Shown: piece after piece, positions 7,283-41,356 of the stretch
Numbering within the stretch: position 1 is the stretch's first letter
How the letters are laid out: each line of letters begins with the position of its first letter
Virus record (IMG/VR): IMGVR_UViG_3300042545_001484
Span: 1-64,000 of that record
Length of the DNA stretch: 64,000 nt
Direction: 5' to 3' (one strand)
From: a virus
Program-made: the position numbers and the translations under genes
The notes under the pieces: generated by a model
Databases searched by the model: none
The model's input: only the letters and a program-made list of their open reading frames with translations
Told to the model about the DNA's origin: nothing

Positions 7283-7283
7283 T

Positions 7284-7359: not shown

Positions 7360-7387
7360 ATTTGTTTATTAGGTTTTGTAAAAACAA

Positions 7388-7888: not shown

Positions 7889-7916
7889 GTTTGATGGACG
7901 ATTTTTGAAAATACTT

Positions 7917-7955: not shown

Positions 7956-7958
7956 GAA

Positions 7959-8174
7959 ATGAAGGAATTCGAAATGGAAGTTTTTGCATTGTTAGGTGAG
8001 TTTGATCACCACGGTTCGCTGTTGTTGGGCGTGTATGCATCTGAAGAAGAAGCACGGACTGCCTACGGTGTGTATACTCGTGACGGCGATCAATTCATCG
8101 ATTTTTACTACATCGAGCATCGTGTAGTCGGCGCTCCTGTAGATTCCGAACGTCATCGGATCTACATCGGTTAA
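7959..8174 (+). CDS. hypothetical protein (71 aa)
   Basis: Promoter plus ATG; acidic. Confidence 0.5.
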   Translation: MKEFEMEVFALLGEFDHHGSLLLGVYASEEEARTAYGVYTRDGDQFIDFYYIEHRVVGAPVDSERHRIYIG

Positions 8175-8182
8175 AGTTTAAT

Positions 8183-8258
8183 GGACCCTTAGCTCAGTCG
8201 GTAGAGCATCGGACTCTTAATCCGCAGGTCGTTGGTTCGAATCCAACAGGGTCTACCA
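8183..8258 (+). tRNA. tRNA-Lys (CTT)
   Basis: Acceptor ggaccct/agggtct; loop cuCUUaa (one mismatch at the top of the anticodon stem); CCA encoded. Confidence 0.8.
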
Positions 8259-8262
8259 ATTC

Positions 8263-8338
8263 GGACGGTTAGCTCAGTAGGTAGAGCAACGGGCTTTTAA
8301 CCTGTGTGTCCTGGGTTCAAACCCCAGACCGTCCACCA
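8263..8338 (+). tRNA. tRNA-Lys (TTT)
   Basis: Acceptor ggacggt/accgtcc; loop cuUUUaa; CCA encoded. Confidence 0.85.
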
Positions 8339-8352
8339 TTTTTGGAGATTGT

Positions 8353-8530
8353 TATGGGTAAAATGATTTTTGCTTTCTTGTCAATGTGTATAATTTTATA
8401 TACAAGCATTGATATTTTCCGTCGGCTGACCGGAAAAGAAAAGATGGAGTTTGTTAAGTTGGCCAGTTACTCGTTGGGCATTGCGACAATCGCGTCGCTA
8501 TTTGCTCTTGCTATTATCGTTTTGTTTTAA
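8353..8530 (+). CDS. small hydrophobic membrane protein (59 aa), possible NfeD-like partner of the SPFH protein
   Basis: MGKMIFAFLSMCIILY...IATIASLFALAIIVLF, two predicted TM helices. Immediately upstream of the SPFH gene. Confidence 0.45.
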
Positions 8531-8542
8531 GGAAGATATATT

Positions 8543-9340
8543 ATGAATCGTATTGCTAAGATTGCTGTGCTCGCTGGTCTCATGGCTACGACTGCTGCTT
8601 GTACTCGAATTGAAACAGGTGAAGTAGGTGTTCGTCGTGCTATCGACAAGACCATTGAAACCACAGAGTTGATGCCAGGATCAATCAACCAGACACTGTT
8701 TGGCGATGTTATGACGTTTCCTACCAAGGACGTTTCTGTTGACGTTGCTGACTTGACTCCACTCGCGTCAGATAACTCGACCGTTGCTGACTTCGACATG
8801 GCAGTCATCTACTCGATCAATCCAGGTTCGGTTGCCGAACTCTACATCGAGAAGAATCGTGGCTTCCACGCTGACACCGAAGAAGGTGATACGCTGTTGA
8901 TGTATAACTACATTCGTCAGTTGGGTCGTAATGCTGCATACAAGGTTGCTCGTCGCTACGAGTCACTGAAGATGGCAGACAATCGTGCTGAAATCGAACA
9001 GCTTGTTCGTCAGGAAATTATTGCAAGCCTCGCATCTGAAAAGCTAGATAACTCAATTTCTATCTCACAGGTTCTGGTTCGTCAGGTCAAGCCTGCAGCC
9101 AATATCGTGCAGTCTGCTAACCTTTTGGTCCAAGCGCAAAATGAAAACAAGCGTAAGGAAGTAGAAGTTTCTACTGCAAAACTTGAAGCACAGCGTATCT
9201 CTGCATTGAATGCTAACGCTGGCGCAACTAAGTATATGGAAGCTACTGCTATCGTGACGATTGCTGAAGCGATTAAGGACGGCAAGGTTAACACCATCGT
9301 TGTTCCTTATGACTTCAAGGGTATTGTCAACGTAAAGTAA
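8543..9340 (+). CDS. SPFH/band-7 (stomatin/prohibitin-like) domain lipoprotein
   Basis: Signal peptide with a lipobox (TTAAC). Band-7 pattern KDVSVDVADLTPLASDNSTVADFDMAVIYSINP followed by a coiled-coil region. Confidence 0.55.
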   Translation: MNRIAKIAVLAGLMATTAACTRIETGEVGVRRAIDKTIETTELMPGSINQTLFGDVMTFPTKDVSVDVADLTPLASDNSTVADFDMAVIYSINPGSVAELYIEKNRGFHADTEEGDTLLMYNYIRQLGRNAAYKVARRYESLKMADNRAEIEQLVRQEIIASLASEKLDNSISISQVLVRQVKPAANIVQSANLLVQAQNENKRKEVEVSTAKLEAQRISALNANAGATKYMEATAIVTIAEAIKDGKVNTIVVPYDFKGIVNVK

Positions 9341-10377: not shown

Positions 10378-11394
10378 ATGTTATCTTCTAGCGACAGTAA
10401 TATGACTTATGTGCAATCTAGACTCGCCAAGGCGAAGATCAAAATGCTTCAGCTTGATGTGTTTGGATTCTGTAATGCCAAATGTTGGTATTGCCCTGTA
10501 AGATATATTCCTCAGCCAGAAGAAGGCATGGTTCAAATGCCTTTGGAAACTGTCGAGAAAATCTTCAAGCAATTTGTAGAAGAACGAGACAAAGAAGAAG
10601 GTGTTGTTGATCGCAGCTTTAGTTTGTTTATGACAACTCATTATAGCGAGATTCTTTTGTATAAGGATTTTGCTGGGCTGTTGGAACTTGCCAGAAAATA
10701 TAAGCTGCAGACTTTTATTCTCAGTAATGGTATGAACCTGAACAAAGAAAAAGTCGATCTGATCAAAGAGTATAAAGATGTTGTTCCTCATATTGGGCTG
10801 AACATTCCTGCTTTTGAGAAGGAACTGTGGGCAAAGCGTGCTGGGTTTCCTGAAAGACGGTTCGACGAATTGATGGAGAATCTGGATTATGCAGGAGAAA
10901 CTCTGCATGGGCTTATAGAACTCAATATCCATGTCAACGGTGTTAACACTGAAGATTTCAATGGTCGAACAACCAAAGGTCCAAAGTTTGACGAACTTGA
11001 TATTAACTTAGACAGAGAACATGGCGAGTGGGAACGACAGTGGGTGATCGCTGATCGAAGGTTCCCCAAGTTTAATGTCGGCAAAGGTTCGTTGATGGAT
11101 CGCACTGGTTTGCTTTCTGATTATATTTCTAACAAAGAGATGCAGGAACGCAGACTCGAGACTCGCACCGTTGTCGGTTGTGGAAATTGGGGCGACAGAA
11201 CCACCGAATGGCTGCATATCAATGCAGCAGGTGACGTGATTCTTTGTTGTAACGATTATAATTTCGACTATAAGTTTGGAAACATTAACACCCAAACTAT
11301 TCGAGAAATTTGGGGCAGCGATGCCCATGCCGCTACAGTTGAACGAGCATATCGTGAGATATGTGCAAATTGTACGGCAGCAATAATTATCTAA
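10378..11394 (+). CDS. radical SAM enzyme with a C-terminal SPASM/twitch-like Cys-rich domain
   Basis: CxxxCxxC (CNAKCWYC) near the N-terminus. C-terminal cluster VVGCGNWGD...LCCND...ICANC. 338 aa. Confidence 0.7.
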   Translation: MLSSSDSNMTYVQSRLAKAKIKMLQLDVFGFCNAKCWYCPVRYIPQPEEGMVQMPLETVEKIFKQFVEERDKEEGVVDRSFSLFMTTHYSEILLYKDFAGLLELARKYKLQTFILSNGMNLNKEKVDLIKEYKDVVPHIGLNIPAFEKELWAKRAGFPERRFDELMENLDYAGETLHGLIELNIHVNGVNTEDFNGRTTKGPKFDELDINLDREHGEWERQWVIADRRFPKFNVGKGSLMDRTGLLSDYISNKEMQERRLETRTVVGCGNWGDRTTEWLHINAAGDVILCCNDYNFDYKFGNINTQTIREIWGSDAHAATVERAYREICANCTAAIII

Positions 11395-13576: not shown

Positions 13577-14029
13577 ATGGGAAAGATGCTAAAACGAGTG
13601 ACGGCACTAATGCTGCTCCTGACAAGCAGCCACCTGCAAGCAAGTGAACTGGTCCATCAATTTAAAAATCCTTCATTCTCTGGCGTCAATGCTGGAGCGC
13701 AATGGCTGACGATTGAAAATCAAGAGACTCTGCGTAAAAAAACTATACAGGACAAGATAGAAGCTGATTTGAAAGCAAAGGCTCTCGAAGAAAAAAACTC
13801 TATTTTGAATCGTTTCTTGAATAACTTGCAGTCTCGTATCTATTCTCAGCTGGCACAACAGCTTACCAATAATTTGTTTGGCGAAGATGGCGGAGAGGCT
13901 GGAGAATTCATACTCGAAGGCAACACTATCAAGTATGAAAAAACTGAAACAGAAATTAAACTTGTGATCATTGATGCAGCTGGCAATCAAACTGAGATTA
14001 TAGTTCCAACAAGTGGATTCAAGTGGTAA
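13577..14029 (+). CDS. csgF: CsgF-like curli assembly protein
   Basis: Signal peptide. The mature N-terminus ELVHQFKNPSFSGVNAGAQWLTIENQ matches the E. coli CsgF N-terminus ([28 protein letters not shown]). Stop overlaps the csgG start (TAATG). Confidence 0.6.
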   Translation: MGKMLKRVTALMLLLTSSHLQASELVHQFKNPSFSGVNAGAQWLTIENQETLRKKTIQDKIEADLKAKALEEKNSILNRFLNNLQSRIYSQLAQQLTNNLFGEDGGEAGEFILEGNTIKYEKTETEIKLVIIDAAGNQTEIIVPTSGFKW

Positions 14030-14841
14030 TGTGGAAGATTCTATTATTACCTTTTCTTCTGTGTGGTTGCGTGGCATCTGGACCTGTTGGTCTTCAATTA
14101 AAAGAAGATGCAAAGATTGTAAAGACACAAGTCAAAGAATTATACAACCTTCCTGCGCCTGACAGACAAGCAGTAGTAGCGGTTTATGACTTTCCTGATA
14201 TGACAGGTCAACGCAGAGATAAAGATGGTATTGCCAGCATATCAACTGCAGTCACACAAGGCGGAACACCACTATTAATTTCTGCTTTGAGGGATGCAGG
14301 TGGAGGAACATGGTTTAGAGTTGTAGAACGAAATCGTGTCGAGGATCTTGCCAAAGAACGTCAGATTGTTAGACAGACTCGTGAAGAATATCTTGGTGAG
14401 GGTGCAAATAAACTCGAACCAATGCTGTTCGCTGGGCTCATCATCCAAGGTGGTATTATCGGGTATGATAGTAACATACAGACAGGCGGAGCAGGAGCAA
14501 GATATCTTGGTGTAGGAGGCTCTGTCGTCTACCGAAAAGATCAGGTTGTTGTTTCTCTGCGAGGAGTCAACACTAATACTGGAGAAGTTGTTCTTAATGT
14601 GCAAGTTTCTAAAACAGTATTATCTGTCGGTAAAGATCTGTCACTGTTTAAATTTGTCGATGTTGGCACAAAATTGGTGGAAGCCGAAGCAGGCATGACC
14701 GAAAATGAAGCCAACACCATGGCAGTCAAAATGGCGATTGAAGAAGCAGTTTTACAATTGATAAAACAGGGTATCGAGAAAGGATATTTTAAGTTCGCAC
14801 CGAAGATCGATATCGATCGATCGGTATCATTAAAGGAATAA
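14029..14841 (+). CDS. csgG: CsgG curli secretion channel lipoprotein
   Basis: Lipobox LLCGC. Long collinear similarity to E. coli CsgG: LPAP...VAVYDFPDMTGQ, LISALRDAGGGTWFRVVERNRVEDLAKERQI, GGIIGYDSNIQTGGAGARYLGVGG, VNTNTGEVVLNV. Confidence 0.85.
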   Translation: MWKILLLPFLLCGCVASGPVGLQLKEDAKIVKTQVKELYNLPAPDRQAVVAVYDFPDMTGQRRDKDGIASISTAVTQGGTPLLISALRDAGGGTWFRVVERNRVEDLAKERQIVRQTREEYLGEGANKLEPMLFAGLIIQGGIIGYDSNIQTGGAGARYLGVGGSVVYRKDQVVVSLRGVNTNTGEVVLNVQVSKTVLSVGKDLSLFKFVDVGTKLVEAEAGMTENEANTMAVKMAIEEAVLQLIKQGIEKGYFKFAPKIDIDRSVSLKE

Positions 14842-14846
14842 GGGTA

Positions 14847-15542
14847 ATGAAAAATAAAATAGCTCTTTTCATTATGTTTCTGATGACGAGTTCGGTGAGT
14901 TTTGCACAAACAACAACCAACTCGATTTTTATTGATCAGGTCGGTGATAGTAGCACTATTACTATTACCCAAAAAGGTCAAACCAACAGCATCGGTTCTG
15001 AGCAGAATCGAGTAGTAATTGAAGGTAATAACCAAACAGTTACAGTCAAACAAGAAGGTAATGGAAACATTATCCAAGGCTCTATTGTTCAAGCAGATAA
15101 TGTCGATAAGGATGTTACTGTTACTGGCGACAACAATAAGTTGACGTATGACGAAGGCGATAGCGGTAGTGTGGCTGGATCCACCAAAACACTTACAGTG
15201 ACTGGGGATTCAAACGACTTGACCTTTAATCAGGGTACAGCGGCATCAGCCACTAATGCTACACAAACTATCGCAATCACTGGTGACACCAACACAATGA
15301 CATCCACCATAAATGCGGATGATGTGGTGAACACTAAGACTATTGTTGGTGATGGTAATACTATTACTACGCTGCAGAATGGCAATGCTGGGAAGAATAT
15401 TGAATTGGTTCTTACAGGCAGTACAAATACATTAACAATAAATCAGCAGAGCACAACAAATGTTGACACACTTAAAGTTGATAGCACGAGCAACGGCAGC
15501 ACTATTACTATTAATCAGTGCAACGCAGGTGGTCCATGCTAA
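14847..15542 (+). CDS. secreted curlin-repeat-like (CsgA/CsgB-type) beta-solenoid protein
   Basis: Signal peptide. About 8 imperfect ~22-aa repeats of the form x-I-x-I-x-Q-x-G-x-x-N-x-I (IDQVGDSSTITITQKGQTNSIGSEQ...) reminiscent of curlin repeats. C-terminal Cys pair. Confidence 0.5.
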   Translation: MKNKIALFIMFLMTSSVSFAQTTTNSIFIDQVGDSSTITITQKGQTNSIGSEQNRVVIEGNNQTVTVKQEGNGNIIQGSIVQADNVDKDVTVTGDNNKLTYDEGDSGSVAGSTKTLTVTGDSNDLTFNQGTAASATNATQTIAITGDTNTMTSTINADDVVNTKTIVGDGNTITTLQNGNAGKNIELVLTGSTNTLTINQQSTTNVDTLKVDSTSNGSTITINQCNAGGPC

Positions 15543-16551
15543 TATTGGTAAGGTAACTCAAACTCGAGGTTCGAGCGAAGTTGTGAAGAAAACTGCAAAG
15601 GTTCCTTCACGACTTCAGTTACCTATTGCCAAGATGGACAAAGTGCAGACTGGAAACGGTAGAGTCGAGATAACTTTTTTAGACGACTCTACCGTCAAAG
15701 TCACTGAAAATTCTAGGCTTGTTGTTGATGATTTTGTTTACAGCGGCAATCCATCAACATCAAAAATGGTTCTCAAATTTGCTTCGGGGACTGCCAGATT
15801 TGCGACAGGTAAATCCGGAAAAATCAACAAAGGCAATATTAATCTGAGAACACCAACAGCCACGATTGCTGTTCGTGGAACAGACTTTGCGACCACAGTC
15901 GATGATTTTGGAAAGAGTTTGGTCATCCTTCTGCCAGAGGAAGATGGATCAGTTGGTGAGATTACTGTTTCAAATGCTGCTGGCTCAGTCATTTTGACCA
16001 GAGCGTTTCAAGCGACCATAGTATCAACCACAGACAGCAGACCTACTCGTCCAGTCATTCTGAATATGTCACTTGATCAAATTGATAATATGCTCATCGT
16101 AGCACCTGCCGAAGAATTCAAGACTGAGGAGGAATTGAGAGATATCAGGACTAACATGCTGGATCTCTCTGAACTTGATGTAGATTTCCTTGCCAAAGAT
16201 GATCTACAAGAAAATGCACTTGCAAGTTCGGATCTTGATATTAATGCAATCGATGCAAATTACCTCGGCGAAGACTTTTTAGACAATGCTTTAGGAGCAG
16301 ATAATTGTGTCACCAGAGAAGACACCAAGTTGTGCGGAACAACATTTGGGCTAGATAATACTACACAGATAACTACAATTCTTTCTGGAGATTATCTACG
16401 GCTCGTTCGGACACTAAGTAGTACTGTTGACATTGTTGTCAAAAAAGATTCAAACAAAACATTATACATAGATAGTAATGGAAAGTCATTTCTAATCGAA
16501 GTAAATCAACCATCGGGCGGGACTATTATAAATGTCAAACAAAGCGATTAA
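15460..16551 (+). CDS. FecR-domain protein with signal peptide; overlaps the curlin-like gene by 83 nt in another frame
   Basis: Signal peptide ...LLLLISATQVVHA. FecR-like segment GTARFATGKSGKINKGNINLRTPTATIAVRGTDF. FecR-domain proteins commonly partner CHASE2 sensors. Confidence 0.6.
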   Translation: MLTHLKLIARATAALLLLISATQVVHANIGKVTQTRGSSEVVKKTAKVPSRLQLPIAKMDKVQTGNGRVEITFLDDSTVKVTENSRLVVDDFVYSGNPSTSKMVLKFASGTARFATGKSGKINKGNINLRTPTATIAVRGTDFATTVDDFGKSLVILLPEEDGSVGEITVSNAAGSVILTRAFQATIVSTTDSRPTRPVILNMSLDQIDNMLIVAPAEEFKTEEELRDIRTNMLDLSELDVDFLAKDDLQENALASSDLDINAIDANYLGEDFLDNALGADNCVTREDTKLCGTTFGLDNTTQITTILSGDYLRLVRTLSSTVDIVVKKDSNKTLYIDSNGKSFLIEVNQPSGGTIINVKQSD

Positions 16552-18613
16552 AATTTTATTGTCTCCGTGGTTGGTACTGATCACATTTGCGCTACTGCTT
16601 GTAGTAAAGCTACAAGATCCATTTTTGGTTGAAGCGTCTCGCCTTAAATTTTATGACTACATCATGCTGGATACACCAAAGCAATCTGAGCAGATTGTAG
16701 TCGCTAATTTAGGGGAGAAATCAATTGAAAAATATGGTCAGTGGCCTTTCCCGAGGGAAGTCCATGCTAAAATCATTGGCGATATATACAGCAGAGGGGC
16801 TGGCGCTGTTGGCAGCACTATACTTATGCCTGAGCCTGACCGCTTGGGGACTGATAGAGTTCTTGCGAATGCTCTAAGCGAATATCCAGTTGTACTCAGT
16901 CAGACTGTTTCCGCTGACTGTATTGCTGGATCGACCACTGGCCGAGGTTCACCTCAGGCAAGTGCGACAATTCGGAAGACAGGCGTTGCCGTAATCGGCG
17001 ATGGAGAACCAACTGAATTTCTTCCTCAATATCCATGCGTTCTAAGTAATATTGCACCTCTGCAAGAAGCCGCTGTCGGTGTTGGGATAACATCAACATT
17101 ACCTGAGGCAGACGGGGTCGTACGGCGAGTTCCTCTTCTAGCACAATCATCTGGCGAATACTATCCCGCATTTGCTCTAGAGATGCTGCGTGTAGCTGCT
17201 GGAGATCCGTCATATCAAGCGAAGATAAATCAGACGGGAGTTGAGGCATTACGAATTCCTTCCTTCGAAACAATTAAAACTGATGAATATGGTCGAGTGT
17301 TCGTCAATCCGAACTATAAATTTGCGTCATTCGAAATTGGTGACAAGGCTTTGCCTGATCTGACAGGTAAAATTGTGATACTTGGCGTAACTGCCGCTGG
17401 TATCGCGAATCCTGTAGCGACTCCACAAGGTGCGCAGTATCCCCATCAGTTGCAAGCGTCAATTCTTCAGACTCTGATAAATGGTGATTCGGTTGCGATT
17501 CCTCTGTGGGGGCAACTTGCTGATCTTGGTGCATTTGTTTTTGTTTGCCTGTCATTGATTGTTGTTTCTCGTTTCCGCTATTCAATTATATATATCGCCG
17601 TGATCATGGGCGGATATCTGTATCTACCATTCTATTTATTTACCAAAGAACACATCCTTTTTGATGTGTCGTTCAATATTGCTGCTGCACTGTTTGTATA
17701 TATACATCTATATACTGCCAAGTTTATCAGCGAATTCCTACAAAAGCAACAGATTAAGAAACAGTTTGGCACGTATCTGTCGCCAGACTTGGTTGCTCAG
17801 CTGCAGAAACAGCCAGAGTTACTCAAGCTAGGTGGAACAAAACAACAGTTGTCGATTATGTTTACTGATGTTCGTGGCTTCACTACTATTTCCGAACACT
17901 ATGGCGAAGACGTTGAAGGTCTTACTTCCATAATGAATAGATATATGACTGTGATGACAAGAGCTATTCTGGAAAACAAAGGAACACTTGATAAGTATAT
18001 TGGTGACGCACAGATGGCTTTCTGGAATGCACCAGTAGATAACCCTCAACATGCTTTGGATTCGGTGCGCACTGCTTTCCAGATGCTAAAAGACCTGGAG
18101 ATATTTAATGGCGAAATTAAAGGGGAAGGCATTCCAGCTTTCGGTATGGGTCTTGGTATTAACACTGCCACTGTGGTTGTTGGTAATATGGGCAGCGACC
18201 AGCGTTTTGATTACACTTGCTTGGGTGATGGGGTTAATTTGGCTGCTCGCCTCGAAGGTCAAACCAAACCTTATGGGGTCAAACTCATCGTCGGACCACA
18301 AACTGCCGAACTGGTTAGGGATGTATACCAAGTAATTGAACTTGATTTGATTGCTGTTAAAGGCAAAACTGAACCAGCTCGAATCTATACAGTTCTTGAA
18401 GAAAAGAACGAAAAGGCTGAAATTGCTCACAACAGATTCCTGGATGCATATCGCTCAGGTGATTGGGGCAGAGCCATGGCCATGGCATATGAAATGGGTC
18501 CATTGTGGAATGGAGAACTCAAAGGCTACTACGAAGCCATGCTCGATCGTATGAACGAAGCCAAAGCTGCTCCTAAAAATTGGGATGGTGTTTATCGCGC
18601 AACCTCAAAATAA
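16532..18613 (+). CDS. CHASE2 sensor, transmembrane region, class III adenylate/guanylate cyclase
   Basis: N-terminal TM then CHASE2 pattern (KYGQWPFPREVHAKII). 4-5 TM helices mid-protein. Cyclase motifs FTDVRGFTTISE, YIGDAQMAFW, GLGINTATVVVGNMGS, GDGVNLAARLEG. Confidence 0.8.
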   Translation: MSNKAIKILLSPWLVLITFALLLVVKLQDPFLVEASRLKFYDYIMLDTPKQSEQIVVANLGEKSIEKYGQWPFPREVHAKIIGDIYSRGAGAVGSTILMPEPDRLGTDRVLANALSEYPVVLSQTVSADCIAGSTTGRGSPQASATIRKTGVAVIGDGEPTEFLPQYPCVLSNIAPLQEAAVGVGITSTLPEADGVVRRVPLLAQSSGEYYPAFALEMLRVAAGDPSYQAKINQTGVEALRIPSFETIKTDEYGRVFVNPNYKFASFEIGDKALPDLTGKIVILGVTAAGIANPVATPQGAQYPHQLQASILQTLINGDSVAIPLWGQLADLGAFVFVCLSLIVVSRFRYSIIYIAVIMGGYLYLPFYLFTKEHILFDVSFNIAAALFVYIHLYTAKFISEFLQKQQIKKQFGTYLSPDLVAQLQKQPELLKLGGTKQQLSIMFTDVRGFTTISEHYGEDVEGLTSIMNRYMTVMTRAILENKGTLDKYIGDAQMAFWNAPVDNPQHALDSVRTAFQMLKDLEIFNGEIKGEGIPAFGMGLGINTATVVVGNMGSDQRFDYTCLGDGVNLAARLEGQTKPYGVKLIVGPQTAELVRDVYQVIELDLIAVKGKTEPARIYTVLEEKNEKAEIAHNRFLDAYRSGDWGRAMAMAYEMGPLWNGELKGYYEAMLDRMNEAKAAPKNWDGVYRATSK

Positions 18614-22508: not shown

Positions 22509-22688
22509 ATGACTAACTTTATGGTTGACTTTTATGAGAACAAGAATGGCATCAGCAATCGGCGGATGCTTCAAGGTTCTCCCACAATCCACCTCAACAA
22601 CGCGAAGTCAGATTTTGCTGTTCAGGCATATCTGAAGCGCACTTACCCCAACTCCGAAATTATTATTAACAATGTAGAATGGAAATGA
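22509..22688 (+). CDS. small hypothetical protein (59 aa)
   Basis: Follows promoter and RBS; MTNFMVDFYENKNG... Confidence 0.4.
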   Translation: MTNFMVDFYENKNGISNRRMLQGSPTIHLNNAKSDFAVQAYLKRTYPNSEIIINNVEWK

Positions 22689-22690
22689 TT

Positions 22691-23206
22691 ATGGAAAATA
22701 TTTATGTGATTTACGGCAAAGATGATTGCCCTTTCTGTGAACAGGCTAAGGCACTTCTGACCTCCAAAGGTATGAAGTTTGACTATCTTACACTGAACGT
22801 AGATTATGACCGTGAAGATTTGTTTGCTATGGCCCCAGAAGCTCGGTCTGTTCCACAGATTTGGCTGATCCAAGATACTAACAAACTCAAAGAAAATTGG
22901 ACTCACATTGGTGGTTTCCAGGAACTGAAGGCATCGTTCGAGAAGAGTGAAATTGAACAGGCTCTCGATGAAGGTGCAACTCTCAGTGTTGTGTTCACCA
23001 AGGCTGATGGCACCGAGCGCACCATGCTCTGCACCAAGAACTCTCAGGTTATCTCTGAGCAATACACTGCTCCTGAAAAGAAAACTGAACGGACTCGTAA
23101 GGATACCGATGGTCTGGTTGTTGTCTTCGATCTAGAGAAGAACGAATGGCGCAGCTTCCGTCTCAATTCGGTGAAGAGCTATATGGTCTTTGAGGATGTA
23201 GAATAA
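22691..23206 (+). CDS. glutaredoxin-like protein with a C-terminal extension (NrdC-like role plausible)
   Basis: CPFC active site in a glutaredoxin-fold N-terminal 80 aa, plus about 90 extra residues. Confidence 0.6.
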   Translation: MENIYVIYGKDDCPFCEQAKALLTSKGMKFDYLTLNVDYDREDLFAMAPEARSVPQIWLIQDTNKLKENWTHIGGFQELKASFEKSEIEQALDEGATLSVVFTKADGTERTMLCTKNSQVISEQYTAPEKKTERTRKDTDGLVVVFDLEKNEWRSFRLNSVKSYMVFEDVE

Positions 23207-23353: not shown

Positions 23354-23563
23354 ATGAGTAAGTTTATTTGGGTAAGAGATCGCGACAAGTTTGAACACTA
23401 TATTAATGTAAATCATATCATCGATGTGAAAAAGATTCCGGCACATGGCGTTTATAGCGCCGCCGCATATATCATATTAGCAAAAGAAGGCGAAATTCCC
23501 TTATCTCTGGATCAGTTCGATACATATGAGGATGTGATCACCAAAATTCAGGCTGCAGCATGA
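23354..23563 (+). CDS. hypothetical protein (about 70 aa)
   Basis: Short ORF whose stop overlaps the start of the epimerase gene. Confidence 0.4.
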   Translation: MSKFIWVRDRDKFEHYINVNHIIDVKKIPAHGVYSAAAYIILAKEGEIPLSLDQFDTYEDVITKIQAAA

Positions 23564-24555
23564 AGAAGGCGATTGTTACTGGAGCATCAGGGTTCATCGG
23601 GCGTGTTCTCCAGCTAAAGCTGAAAGAAGCTGGTTATTATGTCATTGGCGTAGACGTAAAGTGTGACAATTACGACTGGAACACTGATGAGTTTTTTATT
23701 GATAATTATGCAACAATTGCCTCTGACGGCGATCTGGATGGCGTTGATGCAATCTTCCATCTTGGCGCTAACAGTTTGCTTGGGCCATCGGTATCCAAAC
23801 CACTATACTACTATGATAATAACGTTAGTAGTATGTGCGATATGCTGTCCAATTTAGCTAGAGAAAACTGGAAGGGTGCATTTATCTTTGCATCCTCTGC
23901 TGCAACATATGGTGATATGCGCAGCCCTGATCCTTTGCCTGAAGTTGTGGCTGGAAGTCCAATCAATCCCTATGGCTCAACCAAGTGGGTTGGTGAGATG
24001 ATGTTGAAAGAATCATGCGAAGCGTATGGCCTCAAGGCATACTCAATGCGCTTCTTCAATGTTGCTGGTGCATACAAAGGTATCGGCCAAGCTGCTAATC
24101 AACCACATATCCTTACCAAAATGTCAAAGGCATCTTTGACTGATGACACATTCTACATCAACGGTAATGAATACGACACCTTTGATGGAACATGCGTAAG
24201 AGATTATATCCACGTAGCTGATGTGTGTGATGCTCTGGTTGCTGCAGCAGAACAACTATATAATAAGCCTGAACGTGAATACGACACCTTCAATGTTTGC
24301 AGTGGCAAACCTGTGTCGAATCTGCAACTTGCTCTTACATTCGCAAAACTATATCCTCTGGAATATGATATTGCGGAAGTTCGTCCAGGCGATCCTGGAT
24401 TCCTGATTGGCGATCCATATAAATTGTCGTTGATGTGGCCAGAAGGTCCAAAGTATGATCTCGCCGACATCATCACTTCACACTTTGAATCTATTAGTAG
24501 CCAGATGCTTGTTGGGCAACCATGGCTCCGAACTTACGATGGGAAATTACAATGA
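23560..24555 (+). CDS. hldD: NAD-dependent sugar-nucleotide epimerase, HldD-like (ADP-L-glycero-D-manno-heptose 6-epimerase)
   Basis: GASGFIGRV Rossmann motif. Collinear with HldD: VDAIFHLGANS, FIFASSAATYGD, NPYGSTK (YxxxK), YSMRFFNVAG. Confidence 0.65.
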   Translation: MKKAIVTGASGFIGRVLQLKLKEAGYYVIGVDVKCDNYDWNTDEFFIDNYATIASDGDLDGVDAIFHLGANSLLGPSVSKPLYYYDNNVSSMCDMLSNLARENWKGAFIFASSAATYGDMRSPDPLPEVVAGSPINPYGSTKWVGEMMLKESCEAYGLKAYSMRFFNVAGAYKGIGQAANQPHILTKMSKASLTDDTFYINGNEYDTFDGTCVRDYIHVADVCDALVAAAEQLYNKPEREYDTFNVCSGKPVSNLQLALTFAKLYPLEYDIAEVRPGDPGFLIGDPYKLSLMWPEGPKYDLADIITSHFESISSQMLVGQPWLRTYDGKLQ

Positions 24556-25550
24556 GTAGTATTTGGGAACGTAATGAATTGAACGCAAAGTCTCAAGGTG
24601 GGACAGAGCGAATGATGGAAGGTGTTCTGGCTCGATTGAAGCCAGAGTACCACGAAAAGTTTCAGATTATCCCCTCGCGTGTGCGCGAGCTGCATGATGA
24701 TCGCATCCGTATCTATTGGTTGCACGATTTGCCTTGGGATCCCGAGACCAAGCATTTGACCGCCGAGAACAGTCGCAACCGTTTCCACAAGATTGTCTAC
24801 TGTGGCCAGTGGCAGATGAACATGTACCAAAATCATTTGGGAATTCCGCACACTCAGCAAAGCTGTGTCATTGATACTGCGACAACTCCTTTTGGCCCAA
24901 TCAACAAGAGTGATCCGAAAGAAGAAATTCGTTTGGTTTACACCAGCACTCCTCAACGTGGTCTGAACATTCTTGTTCCTGTGTTCGAGAAGCTATGCGA
25001 AAAGTATGACAATATCGTGCTTGACGTTTTCTCAAGCTATAAGATCTACGGTTGGGAAAATGCTGATCAACAGTTCGAGGATCTGTTTGACAAGTGTCGT
25101 AATCATCCTAAGATTAACTACCATGGCTTTGCTCCGAACGAAACAGTTCGTGAGACTGTCGCAAAGGCACATATCTTTGCCTATCCTTCGATCTGGCCAG
25201 AATGCAACAGCCAGTCGTTGATCGAGGCAATGTCATCTGGTGCTGTCTGTGTTCACCCGAACTATGCTGGTCTTACCGATACCTCGGGTAGCATTACCAT
25301 TCAGTACCATTGGGATCAGGATGTCAATGTTCATGCGAATATGTTCTATGCTGTTCTGGATGACACAATCCAAAAGATGCGCGACAATGATATGATGCCG
25401 TATCTACAGTTCCAAAAGACTTATGCCGACTATCGCTACAACTGGGATAAGATTGGTAGTCAATGGAATGCGCTCTGCGAATCGTTGTTGAATGAATACG
25501 AAGGTAAGGATCTGTCTGTTCCTGCTCCCAAGTTTATCTACAAGTCGTAA
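24552..25550 (+). CDS. glycosyltransferase (GT-B, family 1/4-like)
   Basis: C-terminal ESQSLIEAMSSGAVCV...GLTD motif typical of GT4. Start overlaps the epimerase stop. Confidence 0.55.
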   Translation: MSSIWERNELNAKSQGGTERMMEGVLARLKPEYHEKFQIIPSRVRELHDDRIRIYWLHDLPWDPETKHLTAENSRNRFHKIVYCGQWQMNMYQNHLGIPHTQQSCVIDTATTPFGPINKSDPKEEIRLVYTSTPQRGLNILVPVFEKLCEKYDNIVLDVFSSYKIYGWENADQQFEDLFDKCRNHPKINYHGFAPNETVRETVAKAHIFAYPSIWPECNSQSLIEAMSSGAVCVHPNYAGLTDTSGSITIQYHWDQDVNVHANMFYAVLDDTIQKMRDNDMMPYLQFQKTYADYRYNWDKIGSQWNALCESLLNEYEGKDLSVPAPKFIYKS

Positions 25551-25552
25551 TT

Positions 25553-26497
25553 ATGATTCTTGCTAAGGCACCTCTTCGAGTTTCCTTCTTTGGTGGTGGG
25601 TCGGATATTCCTGCCCACTACCTTCGTTGGGGCGGATCAACAATCTCTACTGCGATTGACAAGTATGTCTACGTTGCAGTAGGAAGAACTCCTCAGAATC
25701 ACATCAAGATCAACTATTCTAAACAAGAATTGGTGACTGCTGTTGATGACATTCAAAATGAAATTGTCAAGAATGCCTTAAAATATTTCGGTATCAAATC
25801 TAATATCGAGATCACCACGTTCGCTGATATTCCTACAGTTGGCACAGGGTTGGCAGGTTCTTCTGCTTTCGCCTGTGCACTGGTGGCTGCTCTTGCTGAA
25901 TATTTCCCTAACGGTAAACGGTATAGCGAATATGAGTTAGCGGAAGCTGCATGTAACATTGAGATCGATATGTGCGGCTGGGCAATCGGGAAGCAAGATC
26001 AGTATGCCTCTGCCTTCGGTGGCATGAATTATATTGAATATCTTGCCAGCGATCGGGTGTTGGTCCAGAGAATCGACCCTAAAGGCATCGATAGCTCCAT
26101 GGTTTTGATTCCGACAAACATTCAGCGCCATGCTGCAGAGATTCTCAATAAAATTGATTTTGATCAAAAGACATACCTCATTCGTGAAATGTCACACATG
26201 GCGGATATGCATGCCGACCTTTCTCCGACCTACGATCTCTACGGTCCACTGCTCAACGAAGCATGGAAGTTTAAGAAACAGCTGGAAGGTGGAATCAGCA
26301 GCCCAGAGATTGATTCTCTTTATGACCGATGCCTGAAGGCTGGTGCGTCAGGGGCAAAGCTGCTTGGCGCAGGAGGAGGTGGATATATGCTGGCTCTGAC
26401 TGACAACAAAAACAAATTGAAGCATGAGTTTTCTGATCGAGTCTGTCTTGATGTGGCTGTCGCATTAGACGGGGCAAGAGTAGTATACAAGGATTAA
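25553..26497 (+). CDS. GHMP-family sugar kinase, HddA-like (D-glycero-D-manno-heptose-7-phosphate kinase)
   Basis: N-terminal APLRVSFFGGGSDIP; GHMP motif II PTVGTGLAGSSAFACA; motif III GAGGGGYM. Confidence 0.7.
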   Translation: MILAKAPLRVSFFGGGSDIPAHYLRWGGSTISTAIDKYVYVAVGRTPQNHIKINYSKQELVTAVDDIQNEIVKNALKYFGIKSNIEITTFADIPTVGTGLAGSSAFACALVAALAEYFPNGKRYSEYELAEAACNIEIDMCGWAIGKQDQYASAFGGMNYIEYLASDRVLVQRIDPKGIDSSMVLIPTNIQRHAAEILNKIDFDQKTYLIREMSHMADMHADLSPTYDLYGPLLNEAWKFKKQLEGGISSPEIDSLYDRCLKAGASGAKLLGAGGGGYMLALTDNKNKLKHEFSDRVCLDVAVALDGARVVYKD

Positions 26498-26499
26498 AC

Positions 26500-27099
26500 A
26501 TGACAACACCATATTATACTCTAGATTCATACGCAGCAGAACTGTCACGTGCATTGAGCACTGTTGATCTGAAAGAACTTGACCTAGCAACCAGAAAGAT
26601 TTACGCTACCAAAGGAAACATTTATGTCTGTGGTAATGGCGGTTCGGCAGCTATCGCGGAACATCTGACCTGTGACTGTATGAAGGGTGTTGCTATGGAA
26701 TCAGATCTAGGGCAGTGGTTGAACATCACATCTCTAGCGTCCAACTTCCCTCTCATCTCTGCCATTGCCAACGACATTGGATATAATGAAATCTTTTCAA
26801 AACAAATTGAATGGCAGGTCAAAGATGGTGCTGCCGATGTTCTGATCGCTATCAGTTCCAGCGGTAATTCCCCGAACATTCTTAATGCGATTTCTAAGGC
26901 AGAAGAAAAGGGAATGGAAACTATTGCCATTGTTGGATTTGATGGTGGCGATGCGAAACAACTTGCTAACATTGTCATTCATATCGATTCTGACAATTAT
27001 GGTATCATTGAAGATGCCAGCCAAGCCATTATGCATTTCATGGCTCAACTGATGAGACGTTGGGCTTCTAACAAAGATCCAAGGGATATTAAATACTGA
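26500..27099 (+). CDS. gmhA: sedoheptulose-7-phosphate isomerase (GmhA, SIS domain)
   Basis: VCGNGGSAAIAEHLTCD and ISSSGNSPNIL, characteristic GmhA/SIS signatures. Confidence 0.8.
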   Translation: MTTPYYTLDSYAAELSRALSTVDLKELDLATRKIYATKGNIYVCGNGGSAAIAEHLTCDCMKGVAMESDLGQWLNITSLASNFPLISAIANDIGYNEIFSKQIEWQVKDGAADVLIAISSSGNSPNILNAISKAEEKGMETIAIVGFDGGDAKQLANIVIHIDSDNYGIIEDASQAIMHFMAQLMRRWASNKDPRDIKY

Positions 27100-27599
27100 T
27101 GAAACAGATTGATTTTGTCTTTCTAGATCTTGATGGAGTTGTCTTTGATTTTCATAGTGTGGTCGGCGACCAGCTAAATGACAAAGAAAAATGGTGGAAC
27201 GAAGGATTTCCTGCATTTATCGACGTTGGTGGGTTCGCGGATCTGCCTCTTCTACCATATGCTTATGAATTGATAGAGTTTCTTTGTGAAAATGTAAACG
27301 TCAATTTTCTATCATCAGCTGGTGGTGCATCCAGATTTGAAGAAATTGTTGACCAGAAGCTTGAAGCTCTGCGCAAGAACGGAATTGACCTGCCGACCAT
27401 CATCGTTCCCTCTAAAGGCATCAAGAAACAATTTGCTCGAGAGAATTATCTTTTGATTGATGATCAAGCAAACAATTGTCAAGATTTCATTGAAGCTGGC
27501 GGTGAAGCGATTGTCCATGTTGACGTGAAGACAACGATAGCCTATATAAAAGAACACTATTTTCTAAAAGGTAAAAGCCATGACCAAACAAACATTTGA
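27099..27599 (+). CDS. HAD-superfamily phosphatase, GmhB-like candidate
   Basis: HAD motif I FLDLDGVVFDF; 166 aa; directly downstream of gmhA. Confidence 0.5.
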   Translation: MKQIDFVFLDLDGVVFDFHSVVGDQLNDKEKWWNEGFPAFIDVGGFADLPLLPYAYELIEFLCENVNVNFLSSAGGASRFEEIVDQKLEALRKNGIDLPTIIVPSKGIKKQFARENYLLIDDQANNCQDFIEAGGEAIVHVDVKTTIAYIKEHYFLKGKSHDQTNI

Positions 27600-27864
27600 G
27601 TATGACGACGAGTCGTTCGACTTTGGATTCACCACTGTCTCCGAGCAAGACTTCAAGATCAAAGAAACGACTGTTGTCCAGCAGGTCACCAAAGAGGTAA
27701 CTGAAGCATCAAATGTAAAGGTCGAAAAGATCTACAAAATGATCATGCCTCTGCTGCTAAATCTTAAGAAAGATGCAGACAAAAATGAGTATATCTATTG
27801 GCCACATCGAGGAAAAAAGATCGATGAGTTTATTGCCATTCTAGAAAATGTTGTGAATAATTAA
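27580..27864 (+). CDS. hypothetical protein (94 aa)
   Basis: ORF followed by a strong terminator. Confidence 0.45.
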   Translation: MTKQTFEYDDESFDFGFTTVSEQDFKIKETTVVQQVTKEVTEASNVKVEKIYKMIMPLLLNLKKDADKNEYIYWPHRGKKIDEFIAILENVVNN

Positions 27865-27887
27865 GGAGGCTTCGAGCCTCCTTTTTT
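27865..27887. terminator. rho-independent terminator between convergent genes
   Basis: GGAGGC-ttcga-GCCTCC hairpin followed by TTTTTT. Confidence 0.7.
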
Positions 27888-33899: not shown

Positions 33900-34472
33900 A
33901 TGAAAATTACATTTACTGACAATGGTCTGCCCATGCACTTGGGCGGTCATGAAGGCGAGACCCATCTTGATGACGGTGCTCTTGATTATATCATCGAGAA
34001 ACTCGGTGTCAAGAGCATGGTCGATATTGGTTGTGGTCCTGCGGGCATGGTTGAACTTGCTCGCGAAAAGGGTCTCGAGGTGTTAGGCGTGGATGGCGAC
34101 TTCGTCGTTGATCGCAAGGTTGATGACATCGTCATCCATGACTACCAGAAAGCTCCATATGTTCCGGAGAAAAGCTACGACCTAGCATGGACGGTCGAGT
34201 TTGTTGAGCATATTGAAGAGCAATACATCCGCAACTTTGTTGCTACGATGGATAAGTGCAAGTATGTGCTTATGACTCATGCATTCCCTGGACAGCCTGG
34301 ACATCACCACGTGAATTGCCAGACCACGGAATATTGGGCACATATCATGAATGCGTTTGGATACTCCATCCTTCTCGAAGAGACTAATGCTATCCGCAAA
34401 GCGTCAACGATGAGAGAACGCTATATAAGAGAGCAGAGTATCTTTCTTCTGAACAGAAACTTTGTTGATTAA
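33900..34472 (+). CDS. class I SAM-dependent methyltransferase
   Basis: Motif I VDIGCGPAGM and an acidic motif II (VLGVDGD). Confidence 0.55.
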   Translation: MKITFTDNGLPMHLGGHEGETHLDDGALDYIIEKLGVKSMVDIGCGPAGMVELAREKGLEVLGVDGDFVVDRKVDDIVIHDYQKAPYVPEKSYDLAWTVEFVEHIEEQYIRNFVATMDKCKYVLMTHAFPGQPGHHHVNCQTTEYWAHIMNAFGYSILLEETNAIRKASTMRERYIREQSIFLLNRNFVD

Positions 34473-40286: not shown

Positions 40287-40928
40287 TTATCGTTTCCCTC
40301 TTCCAGTTTTCCATTTTTGCCAAGGCTGTTCGCCTGATGCTGAGTCTGCCCAAACTTCCTCTGCTGTTGCTCCCTGGAATCTCTGCAGTGGTAGAAACAT
40401 AGCAATGTCCCATTCTTTCGGTTCAACATAGATGAACCTAGATTTGACTTGCGAATATAAATATTTTTTGAAACATGGAGCGAACAGCTTCATTGAACCA
40501 GCGCTCTTCAATGCTTCGTATGAGATCTTGAGTTTTGTTGTGTCGTCGAATCTGTCGTTGTTCGCAATAGTATAAAGCGCATCCATCAACCTTGCTCTCA
40601 TAAGAGGCGGAAGATAGTGTAGATTCAGACCTGTAAATCCACCAGCAAATGTACTGACTGGAAAGATAACAGGGAAAGCATCCCAGTAGGGTAGCTTGTC
40701 TTTAGTCTTGGCATCGTATACGTACATATACATGCGTCCAGGCATGATGCTGCTGGTTACGATTGACTTCTCGAACAGCTTGTCTTGGCTGATTCTATTA
40801 CCATTATACCTTTGAGCTTTAGAACGAAACCACTCTCTGGCTTCTTTAGTCTTGTTCGGAATGATGCGCTCTTGTGCAGCCCTCTTAAGAAGGCGAGAAT
40901 AGATGTAATTGTCTGTTGTTACAGCCAT
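40287..40928 (-). CDS. hypothetical structural protein, gp2-like by position
   Basis: Lies between the gp3-like and gp4-like genes, in T4 order 3-2-4; motif PGRMYMYVYDAKTKDKLPYWDAFP...LNLHYLPP. Weak call. Confidence 0.4.
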   Translation of the reverse strand: MAVTTDNYIYSRLLKRAAQERIIPNKTKEAREWFRSKAQRYNGNRISQDKLFEKSIVTSSIMPGRMYMYVYDAKTKDKLPYWDAFPVIFPVSTFAGGFTGLNLHYLPPLMRARLMDALYTIANNDRFDDTTKLKISYEALKSAGSMKLFAPCFKKYLYSQVKSRFIYVEPKEWDIAMFLPLQRFQGATAEEVWADSASGEQPWQKWKTGRGKR

Positions 40929-41356
40929 TAAATTCCCAAGTCTTTTTCGGTTACAATCTGGAATTTCCAGCCTCGTTCTTCACAGAATCTTTCGGCTGCA
41001 TTCCACTTAGCACTATTTATAAGGTATGTGCTTACCTCTGTGAGATATCTCTTAGTATTCCTTGGCTTCTTGGCAGGAGCTCTGGTCTGCGCATCTGGCT
41101 TTATTTCAATAACATACTTCTGTCCATGGACATTTTCAACATACACATCAGGAAAGTATCTGTGTAACTTGTTGTCAATAGGACTTAGGTAAGGTATAGA
41201 GAATTCCTCTGATGCCCATTTGACAACTCCTGGATCTACATCCAGCCGATAGAACATACGCTGTTCCCAATTGCTTCTATAAATAATGTTGTTCGGGTCA
41301 CCCATGTATTTTTCTGGATTTTTCGGTAGATATTTACCTTTGTACGTCTTAAACAT
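40928..41356 (-). CDS. head completion protein gp4-like (PD-(D/E)xK fold)
   Basis: YRSNWE, VVKWASEE..IPY, HRYFPDVYVE...YVIEIKP (a D...ExK motif), and a C-terminal AKWNAAERFCEERGWKFQIVTE resemble the T4 gp4 family, as recalled. Confidence 0.5.
   Translation of the reverse strand: MFKTYKGKYLPKNPEKYMGDPNNIIYRSNWEQRMFYRLDVDPGVVKWASEEFSIPYLSPIDNKLHRYFPDVYVENVHGQKYVIEIKPDAQTRAPAKKPRNTKRYLTEVSTYLINSAKWNAAERFCEERGWKFQIVTEKDLGI

Follow-up and report, generated by a model that had tools for sequence, protein, structure and literature searches.

Nucleotide-activated heptose is made in bacteria by the GDP-D-glycero-alpha-D-manno-heptose pathway (GmhA, HddA, GmhB, HddC), described in Aneurinibacillus thermoaerophilus, Campylobacter jejuni, Burkholderia pseudomallei (WcbL) and Yersinia pseudotuberculosis, and by the ADP-L-glycero-beta-D-manno-heptose pathway (GmhA, HldE or HldA plus HldC, GmhB, HldD), whose glycosyltransferases (GTs) belong to family GT9. 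On the viral side, a heptose annotation is already known for a gene cluster of Caulobacter phage Cr30 (gp006–gp010 and gp178; NC_025422), as are functional heptose biosynthetic enzymes encoded by viruses (Tang et al. 2024, in the summary given in PMC11461863) and heptosylated phage DNA. In the latter case, a phage HAD-APH protein, a cytidylyltransferase and a GT-B enzyme are all required for heptose on 5-hydroxymethylcytosine (5hmC) in E. coli, and the products of this cluster of Pyle et al. (‘contig 53’) are heptosyl- and diheptosyl-5hmC (bioRxiv 10.1101/2023.12.21.572611). A published summary gives the heptose phosphatase as absent in viruses. Systems that make arabinosyl-5-hydroxycytosine (5hoC) follow a logic of isomerase, kinase, HAD and nucleotidyltransferase and use GT4-like DNA transferases (PMC13326640), and the rfaE and glycosyltransferase genes of pelagimyophages have been read as modifiers of the host O-chain (PMC7029224). 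Here we analyzed a stretch of 64,000 nt (positions 1 to 64,000 of IMG/VR record IMGVR_UViG_3300042545_001484; hereafter the window) from a marine T4-like myophage, which carries a compact operon at 23560–27599 and a separate cytidylyltransferase-fold gene at 48269–48670. We consider it likely that this operon makes a nucleotide-activated heptose for its own glycosyltransferase.

The cassette comprises five genes on the plus strand, all in the same direction and either overlapping or separated by no more than 2 nt: a GalE-like SDR (23560–24555, 331 aa; Pfam Epimerase/SDR), a GT4 glycosyltransferase (24552–25550, 332 aa; Pfam Glycos_transf_1, phrog_2170), an HddA-like GHMP kinase (25553–26497, 314 aa; Pfam GHMP_kinases_N and GHMP_kinases_C), a GmhA-like SIS isomerase (26500–27099, 199 aa; Pfam SIS_2/SIS) and a HAD phosphatase (27099–27599, 166 aa; HAD motifs, phrog_2643). 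Family and PHROG profile E-values ranged from 1e-15 to 1e-70, far beyond chance. All six open reading frames (ORFs) named in a preliminary description of this DNA, the cytidylyltransferase gene among them, were recovered in place and their Pfam domain families agree, the HAD being without a Pfam match.

Set beside the described systems, the locus shares with the GDP-heptose pathway a GmhA-type isomerase, a GHMP anomeric kinase, a bisphosphatase step, SDR tailoring and retaining GT-B consumers. Unlike that pathway, the window has no HddC-type NTP_transferase, its nucleotidyltransferase candidate has the cytidylyltransferase fold, its phosphatase is not a HAD-IIIA GmhB, and its family scores lie below the cut-offs. 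The ADP-heptose pathway shares the GmhA-type isomerase and a cytidylyltransferase-fold enzyme but differs in that the window lacks a PfkB-type kinase and the (F/L)xxGxSTT motif, its SDR is GalE-like, its glycosyltransferase is GT4 rather than GT9, and an alpha anomer is predicted. Cr30 carries the same cluster, with SDR, GT, kinase and isomerase in identical order after nrdC and at 35–47% identity; however, no HAD is linked to its cassette, and no inversion divides its locus. The ‘contig 53’ cluster likewise supplies activated heptose to a phage GT-B through a cytidylyltransferase-fold enzyme together with a HAD phosphatase, yet its kinase is APH-like instead of GHMP, it has no phage GmhA, and its GT resembles T4 beta-GT and has no sequence relationship to the one in the window. 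The ‘contig 53’ genes also sit with 5hmC-producing enzymes, whereas none was found over the ~82 kb that we inspected around the window cassette (the window plus ~8 kb upstream and ~10 kb downstream, about half of the 160,657-bp metagenomic contig that the window matches, JGI Ga0453708_0000020 or NCBI JBFDRV010001599.1). The phage UDP-arabinose pathway (RB69, DLP3, HY126 AfhE/AfhF; PMC13326640) offers a parallel in its SIS isomerase, its anomeric kinase, a HAD that takes a sugar bisphosphate as substrate, a nucleotidyltransferase and GT4-like transferases, and one of its HADs also resembles 5'(3')-deoxyribonucleotidase; it differs in its pentose sugar, its KpsF-type isomerase, the fusion of its kinase to an NTP_transferase and its proven acceptor, 5hoC DNA. 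Finally, the ‘LPS-related’ genes (rfaE, glycosyltransferases) of cyanomyophages and pelagimyophages occur in the same phage group, rfaE being the cytidylyltransferase gene there, but they lie mainly in a hypervariable host-recognition cluster, whereas the window cassette occupies a fixed replication/nucleotide-metabolism site and is kept across sampled relatives (PMC7029224). Judged by its gene families, the module would thus work like the GmhA–HddA–GmhB–HddC pathway, with the last two steps carried out by other enzyme families.

The kinase and the isomerase anchor this comparison. For the kinase, HddA was the top NCBIfam family (NF049969, 129 bits, against 72 for the next families), and the top PDB sequences were the HddA-type 3k85, WcbL (4usk) and C. 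jejuni 4n3o (1e-33 to 1e-26). The GHMP motifs SFFGGGSD, GTGLAGSSA and GAGGGG are intact, and the IMG product name is D-glycero-alpha-D-manno-heptose-7-phosphate kinase. The top four NCBIfam matches of the isomerase are all GmhA models (105 bits for TIGR00441), and its 13 best PDB matches are all GmhA (6e-22 and weaker), followed by DiaA (5e-15). Its phosphate loop, SSSGNS, is conserved, as is the motif AIANDxGY, and at H61, E65, Q172 and H180, which we take to be the numbering of the E. coli and B. pseudomallei GmhA enzymes, the protein reads H/D/E/H, with the changes from E65 to D and from Q172 to E regarded as conservative. Bacterial relatives of the kinase (the closest at 37–43% identity) sit in operons of SDR, NTP_transferase, kinase and GmhA, and bacterial homologues adjoin GmhA-like genes in 44 of 80 loci. 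We predict that the kinase is a D-glycero-D-manno-heptose-7-phosphate 1-kinase and the isomerase a sedoheptulose-7-phosphate isomerase. Both assignments had been made in the preliminary description and agree with the profile searches and the solved structures, in which HddA and GmhA rank best; because the scores fall below the curated equivalog cut-offs, we refer to the proteins as HddA-like and GmhA-like rather than as certified members.

A search of phage genomes at the DNA level returned a single match, of 179 bp in Stenotrophomonas phage DLP6, so the cassette had to be compared at the protein level. At least about 100 of the environmental phage contigs sampled carry related cassettes at this position of the genome, so the present one is a genuine module, unusual in its build but of a general kind that is already known. 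Our sample for the conserved core consisted of 80 IMG/VR loci returned by a scan with the kinase; an unverified fecal ‘Bacteriophage sp.’ record (L002, MT835644), with many long ORFs in all six frames, was set aside. Of the 80 loci, 77 have the full set of GT, kinase and isomerase, contiguous and in that order, after nrdC. The upstream anchor of the locus is in the window an nrdC-like glutaredoxin fused to WYL_2 (22679–23206, plus strand; Pfam Glutaredoxin and WYL_2), and a glutaredoxin gene lies immediately before the cassette in 66 of the 80 loci as well as in Cr30, Sinorhizobium phage phiM12 and DLP6. Behind the cassette, relatives carry genes for a ~365-aa protein, a ~117-aa protein, RNase H, PhoH and a PD-(D/E)XK protein. 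In Cr30 the glutaredoxin is followed by an SDR, the GT, a ‘D,D-heptose 7-phosphate kinase’, a small ORF and a ‘phosphoheptose isomerase’, while phiM12 and DLP6 have the GT alone after nrdC, without kinase and isomerase. The nrdC–rnh interval of one further relative (L280, IMGVR_UViG_3300047286_000060) holds only a cytidylyltransferase, an SDR and the GT, kinase and isomerase both being absent. Taken with the lone GT of phiM12 and DLP6, this indicates that the sugar-supply genes were gained or lost stepwise. The GT would then be the constant element of the locus and the enzyme that uses the activated sugar, and the sugar-supply genes modules added onto it.

Several relatives carry additional carbohydrate genes. 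In DLP6, a homologous GT, a GT-A enzyme and a methyltransferase adjoin nrdC (PMC5349666). Methyltransf_24/TylF-like SAM-dependent methyltransferases, which are absent from the window, join the cassette in at least 36 loci (for example L007, 9519–10274, and L121, 6392–6946), and their attachment in so many relatives suggests an O-methylated heptose product. The cyanophage SynMITS9220M01 (a Synechococcus phage; L128) has, besides its heptose-type cassette, a 20-kb glycan island (147.8–170 kb) with a second GHMP kinase, a cupin, several SDRs, HAD phosphatases, four GTs and NTP_transferases, one of which forms a fusion with an RpiB-type isomerase.

The assignment of the HAD depends on these relatives. 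The protein has no Pfam or NCBIfam match, including to the GmhB and HAD-IIIA models (TIGR00213, TIGR01656, NF050049), and its best PHROG is phrog_2643, ‘5'-3' deoxyribonucleotidase’ (7e-21). All four HAD motifs are present (DxD at D10/D12, S72-S73, K109-K110 and D121-D122), and the AlphaFold2 (AF2) model has a confident HAD fold, with a predicted local distance difference test (pLDDT) score of 91. Since residues 18–48, after motif I, form a helical insert in the model, the protein does not correspond to a capless (C0) HAD-IIIA enzyme. Its best fold matches are generic HADs, the deoxyribonucleotidase-like 3bwv, human cdN/mdN and, at rank 12, HisB-N; GmhB is not among the top 50 PDB fold matches. 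With neither a sequence match nor a GmhB fold match, membership of the GmhB family was rejected. The earlier proposal of a HAD phosphatase as GmhB candidate therefore holds as to the superfamily and fails as to the family, the protein resembling 5'(3')-deoxyribonucleotidases.

The distribution of this gene nevertheless ties it to the cassette. The start of the HAD gene overlaps the isomerase stop, and the two are translationally coupled. A small HAD of ~100 aa lies between nrdC/WYL and the GT in 66 of the 80 related loci; in 11 of the 14 exceptions the contig ends upstream of the GT, and the others are L005, L006 and L029, the last of which ends downstream. The window, L005 and L006 are without the small HAD and instead have an NT5C-like HAD directly after the isomerase, and a HAD of the window type occurs among the relatives only in these two, which are the closest. 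A third variant of the cassette fills the same slot with a HAD-IIIA, GmhB-like phosphatase. Such mutual exclusion of HADs within one cassette points to non-orthologous displacement. It is mainly for this reason, the exclusive distribution with respect to the small HAD, that we assign the phosphatase step of the pathway to 27099–27599 in spite of the family it resembles, and predict from sequence comparison that it is a heptose-1,7-bisphosphate 7-phosphatase and a functional analogue of GmhB. The phosphatase step that was called absent in viruses thus seems to be filled here by non-orthologous HADs.

A comparable argument applies to the nucleotidyltransferase candidate (48269–48670, minus strand, 133 aa; Pfam CTP_transf_like, phrog_7878). 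Its top NCBIfam match is rfaE_dom_II (TIGR02199, 79 bits, with TagD at 69), and the HxGH motif is present as HAGH. The label HldE-domain-II-like given to it in the preliminary description agrees with the fold and the top family; the score falls short of the cut-off and lies near that of TagD. Using the cytidylyltransferase as query, we found at least 17 IMG/VR loci, a lower bound, in which a cytidylyltransferase is contiguous with the cassette. Their nrdC–rnh interval holds a SAMdc (S-adenosylmethionine decarboxylase-like) gene, the cytidylyltransferase (52–60% identity), an optional TylF-like O-methyltransferase, a GmhA-like SIS protein, a HAD-IIIA/GmhB-like phosphatase, a transaldolase, the GT (42–48%), an HddA-like kinase (which scores 155 bits with the HddA model) and RNase H. 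This transaldolase variant, exemplified by L103 (2491–6745), L121 (5926–10805) and at least 15 similar loci, would from its gene content suffice on its own to turn central sugar phosphates into activated heptose. In SynMITS9220M01, gp206 is a small HAD fused to a cytidylyltransferase domain that is 42% identical to the window enzyme, and it stands in a run of GT4, HddA-like, GmhA-like, gp206 and SDR genes. The cytidylyltransferase of Cr30 (gp178) lies just downstream of RNase H. On this comparative basis, we predict that the window enzyme is a heptose-1-phosphate nucleotidyltransferase.

Its separate location in the window can be explained. The cytidylyltransferase gene lies directly downstream of a SAMdc gene (48781–49161, minus strand; phrog_3125), in the same SAMdc-to-cytidylyltransferase order as in the at least 17 contiguous loci, and a 364-aa protein at 51570–52664 is 43% identical to the protein that normally follows the isomerase. 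Because this adjacency and this homologue have been kept, we interpret the block at 48269–52664 (minus strand; genes for the 365-aa protein, RNase H and DUF6433, then SAMdc and cytidylyltransferase) as the other half of the ancestral nrdC–rnh locus, of which the SAMdc gene is a marker. A rearrangement has split the locus and left the downstream half inverted and ~21 kb away. Adjoining the cytidylyltransferase gene, at 47656–48135 (minus strand), we also noted a 159-aa outer-membrane beta-barrel protein (OMP_b-brl) with a signal peptide and a weak match to a cyanophage OMP family.

The first gene of the operon had been described as an HldD-like SDR. In the NCBIfam comparison GalE scored 187.7 bits (cut-off 262) against 77.5 for HldD, the top 30 and more PDB matches were all UDP-glucose 4-epimerases, and no HldD occurred among the PDB matches below 1e-10; the HldD identity was consequently rejected, the protein grouping with GalE, an outcome that the preliminary description itself had named as refuting its assignment. 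The SDRs of Cr30 and of cyanophages likewise rank GalE above HldD. Among the 80 related loci an SDR is present in only 8, in varying positions, and is sometimes of another, 4,6-dehydratase-like type. We regard the gene as probably encoding an accessory, tailoring nucleotide-sugar epimerase or dehydratase. With an SDR that groups with GalE and not with HldD, there is no evidence for an L-glycero product, and the ADP-activated L-glycero-D-manno-heptose end product proposed earlier is not supported.

The glycosyltransferase, described from the start as a GT-B enzyme, has borne out that assignment. Its ORF spans 24522–25550 (342 aa) or 24552–25550 (332 aa); the latter start, which overlaps the SDR stop by 4 nt, is more likely as it agrees with the public gene call and with homologue length. 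The protein matches Pfam Glycos_transf_1 (41 bits, gathering score 26.4), has no Pfam match to the GT9 domain Glyco_transf_9, and belongs to a family with 2833 homologues in the protein collection. The glutamates of the EX7E motif (~217 and ~225) are invariant or nearly so in 30 homologues, and the N-terminal GGxE loop is retained. The AF2 model (pLDDT 92.7) has a GT-B fold, and its best Foldseek PDB matches are GT4 enzymes (ManT, HepE, SenB, GlgM, BshA, SdgB, MshA, PimA); this fold search did not separate DNA-modifying from glycan-building GT4 enzymes. Motifs and model together indicate a compact retaining GT4 GT-B enzyme and not an ADP-heptose GT9. Taken together, the retaining GT4 and the HddA-type kinase speak for a donor that is alpha-linked and GDP-heptose-like, and not for ADP-L-glycero-beta-D-manno-heptose.

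The genes present, their family resemblances, the intact catalytic motifs and the recurrent linkage or fusion of the six functions fit a route whose substrates, anomer, nucleotide and acceptor we propose as follows. The GmhA-like isomerase would convert host sedoheptulose-7-phosphate to heptose-7-phosphate; that this is the entry substrate is indicated by the transaldolase inside the variant cassette, an enzyme that interconverts sedoheptulose-7-phosphate. The HddA-like GHMP kinase would then phosphorylate C1 to give heptose-1,7-bisphosphate, as the alpha anomer by analogy with HddA, and the isomerase-coupled HAD would take off the 7-phosphate. The cytidylyltransferase-fold enzyme encoded at 48269–48670 would join heptose-1-phosphate to a nucleotide, and the GalE-like SDR may add optional tailoring, probably epimerization of a ring carbon instead of the C6 epimerization of HldD. 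In the last step the retaining GT4 would transfer the heptose, activated as D-glycero-D-manno-heptose, to its acceptor. The preliminary description had called the pathway a hybrid of the GHMP-kinase and HldE/HldD routes. Its pairing of GHMP kinase and cytidylyltransferase proves to be a recurring phage design, seen in the displacement of HADs, the gp206 fusion and the at least 17 contiguous loci, and the idea is right in that comparative evidence assigns the HAD and cytidylyltransferase steps to the module. Its remark on ADP-heptose as an innate-immunity signal has no bearing on an aquatic phage.

Several observations weigh against a complete heptose pathway. The kinase and the isomerase remain below the cut-offs of their models (129 bits against 600 for HddA and 105 against 209.45 for TIGR00441), and the catalytic Glu65 of GmhA is an Asp in the window isomerase. 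The loci of bacterial kinase homologues contain an NTP_transferase (HddC-type) in 53 of 80 cases and a cytidylyltransferase in 1 of 80, which makes the phage pairing of a GHMP kinase with a cytidylyltransferase unusual. HddA makes the alpha anomer, whereas characterized cytidylyltransferase-fold heptose enzymes use the beta anomer; given this clash, either the kinase or the cytidylyltransferase must differ from its characterized relatives. The cytidylyltransferase itself is below the rfaE_dom_II cut-off of 181.5 and close to its TagD score, and its PDB matches are led by ECT and TagD (ethanolamine-phosphate and glycerol-3-phosphate cytidylyltransferases), with HldC after them. It lacks (F/L)xxGxSTT, the motif reported for heptose nucleotidyltransferases (PMC11461863), and reads RKHSLSTS, a variant kept across the phage subfamily as R-x-H-x-x-S-S/T. 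In the window its gene is 21 kb from the cassette and on the opposite strand, and in sampled phage genomes its relatives at 55–57% identity (in two Vibrio phages and one Acinetobacter phage) stand alone, with no heptose neighbours. The commonest cassette variant (small HAD, GT, kinase, isomerase) has no nucleotidyltransferase within 8 kb. Relatives of the window HAD (30–34% identity) occur in many cassette-free phages and are annotated as deoxyribonucleotidases.

The first alternative leaves the chemistry as it is and changes the acceptor. In this unlikely case the GT would place heptose on 5hmC, 5-hydroxymethyluracil (5hmU) or 5hoC of the phage's own DNA as an anti-restriction hypermodification. 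Heptosyl-5hmC, made with HAD-APH, cytidylyltransferase and GT-B, is a precedent, and two environmental loci, L089 and L095, share its architecture and have a cytidylyltransferase that is 59% identical to the one in the window. The UDP-arabinose pathway for 5hoC follows the same logic, and its transferases match BshA, PimA, MshA and ManT, as our GT does; the cassette moreover lies in a nucleotide-metabolism and replication module, beside nrdC, NrdAB, RNaseH and gp32. Against this stands the enzyme repertoire, as the called genes over the ~82 kb include no ThyA homologue, C5-methyltransferase or TET/JBP, and have ThyX and a dCMP deaminase instead, and the ThyA of Cr30 has the canonical dUMP-methylating residues. 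In sequence, the window GT is not similar to the candidate GTs of L089 and has no match to RB69, DLP3 or RL38J1, and T4 beta-GT is not among its top 50 fold matches. Cr30 and phiM12 are, in addition, efficient generalized transducers, which is atypical for phages with full base replacement. With no hydroxylated-pyrimidine enzyme seen over the ~82 kb, and with glycan-type O-methyltransferases joining the cassette in relatives, we rank a host cell-envelope glycan slightly ahead of phage DNA or protein as the acceptor, with far less confidence than we place in the making of an activated heptose. We give a low probability to the wider proposal that a novel alpha-linked NDP-D-glycero-D-manno-heptose, made through the cytidylyltransferase-fold enzyme, is transferred by the GT4 to a target other than lipopolysaccharide (LPS), be it phage DNA, virion or host protein; if true, it would amount to a widespread, unrecognized glycosylation system of aquatic T4-like phages at the nrdC–rnh locus.

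The two loci are of interest in themselves. L089 (3300020185_000025, 2669–8909) and L095 (3300020463_002440) look like a DNA cytosine hypermodification cluster. L089 encodes a 221-aa ThyA homologue (N177D, L143D, H147T, of which N177D is the cytosine-specific change), a dCMP deaminase, a fusion of a small HAD and an APH-like kinase, a 305-aa protein, the cytidylyltransferase, a 419-aa protein and a C5-methylase-like protein. When L088, L089, L091 and L095 were compared with the supplement of Pyle et al., no ‘contig 53’ identifier was found in common, and for this reason the likeness of these loci to ‘contig 53’ is one of architecture only.

A second alternative would shorten the pathway. Only the GmhA-like enzyme, the HddA-like enzyme and the GT would be linked, and the phosphatase and nucleotidyltransferase steps would come from the host (GmhB, HddC or ManC); the HAD would then be a deoxyribonucleotidase for salvage, the SDR a UDP-glucose 4-epimerase, and the cytidylyltransferase would lead to CDP-glycerol or a similar product. 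The annotation of the HAD family and its many cassette-free members speak for such a division of labour, as does the naming of the cytidylyltransferase in IMG as glycerol-3-phosphate cytidylyltransferase, with TagD and ECT as its top PDB matches. Cr30 has no cassette-linked HAD, the commonest variant no linked nucleotidyltransferase, and the bacterial kinase homologues use an HddC-type partner. A partner of the latter kind was sought in the phage as well: no real ORF of the window contains a GxGTRxxP-type motif by regular-expression search, no called gene over the ~82 kb matches PF00483, and Cr30 gp066 (‘cytidyltransferase’) and gp108 (‘nucleotidyltransferase’) have no homologue in the window. 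What makes the shortened pathway distinctly improbable is that three HAD types fill the cassette in a mutually exclusive manner, that the HAD start overlaps the isomerase stop, that a HAD–cytidylyltransferase fusion stands beside GmhA-like and HddA-like genes, and that a cytidylyltransferase is contiguous with the cassette in at least 17 loci.

Doubt about the sugar itself carries still less weight. If the isomerase and the kinase acted on another sugar phosphate, the product would be a different activated sugar, and the scores of both enzymes, described as under half of the equivalog cut-offs (129 of 600 and 105 of 209.45 bits), the exchanges of Glu65 for Asp and of Gln172 for Glu, and the GalE-like SDR could be taken in this sense; GmhA and HddA are, however, clearly top in HMM and PDB searches, of the 80 loci with bacterial kinase homologues, 44 have a GmhA-like gene alongside, and the variant cassette includes a transaldolase and a GmhB-like HAD, so that we hold this to be very unlikely. 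Hardly credible, finally, is that no nucleotide sugar is formed and that the GT4 uses heptose-1-phosphate as a phosphorylase-like donor or glycosylates a heptose phosphate as acceptor (on the model of GT4 trehalose phosphorylase, or of sucrose-phosphate synthase with a HAD phosphatase or GlgM, to yield a small heptose metabolite), which would suit the self-contained commonest variant and the presence of SenB, GlgM, BshA and MshA, with their small-molecule or sugar-phosphate acceptors, among the best GT fold matches, but not the GGxE loop and EX7E motif of an NDP-sugar user, the GT standing alone in phiM12 and DLP6 or with only cytidylyltransferase and SDR in L280, and the physical linkage of the cytidylyltransferase in at least 17 loci.

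The comparison suggests that a very large clade of aquatic T4-like phages carries one modular cassette, in a fixed place and built of interchangeable parts: three unrelated HADs can fill one slot, and transaldolase, methyltransferases and SDRs are optional. The fixed nrdC–rnh site and the breadth of the cassette appear not to have been described in the literature consulted, and the same appears to hold for its modular variants (three HADs, transaldolase, methyltransferases, SDRs) and for the repeated occurrence of a GHMP kinase together with a cytidylyltransferase-fold enzyme. Should the chemistry be confirmed, this would constitute a new route to activated heptose. The cassette also raises the question of which targets are glycosylated by abundant phages of marine and fresh waters, for which Cr30 offers a tractable model.

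The transcription unit extends slightly beyond the HAD gene. Its last gene is a 94-aa ORF (27580–27864, plus strand, from the ORF list) that had no family match in the profile search and is kept in L005 (86% identity) and L006 (53%). A terminator-like hairpin at 27863–27883 (plus strand; 9-bp stem with five G-C pairs, followed by TTTTAT) closes the unit, although such sites are overall not more numerous in the region than expected by chance.

The phage encodes NrdAB, gp32, RNase H, baseplate proteins and a gp5-like hub, in keeping with its classification as a T4-like myophage, and has hallmarks of the pelagimyophage/Melnitz group (CsgF, CsgG, a curlin-repeat protein and a CHASE2-cyclase gene). 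These lie at 13577–18613 (plus strand), where a curli-type secretion set of CsgF, CsgG and curlin-repeat protein is followed by a FecR-domain protein, and where a 693-aa protein with CHASE2 and guanylate/adenylate-cyclase domains shows ~40% identity to Pelagibacter phage HTVC008M and Methylophilales phage Melnitz. On the strength of the curli set and the CHASE2-cyclase gene, we consider the phage pelagimyophage-like. Elsewhere in the window, a radical SAM/SPASM-domain protein at 10378–11394 (plus strand), which has no PHROG match and small ORFs upstream, might be of the peptide-maturase type. Other genes encode a peroxiredoxin (AhpC/Redoxin; 6130–6708), an SPFH/Band-7 protein (8543–9340), a small class-I methyltransferase adjoining gp32 (33900–34472), a protein with a Tn7 TnsA-like endonuclease domain amid the baseplate genes (40928–41356, minus strand) and a calcineurin-like phosphoesterase (52819–53502, minus strand).

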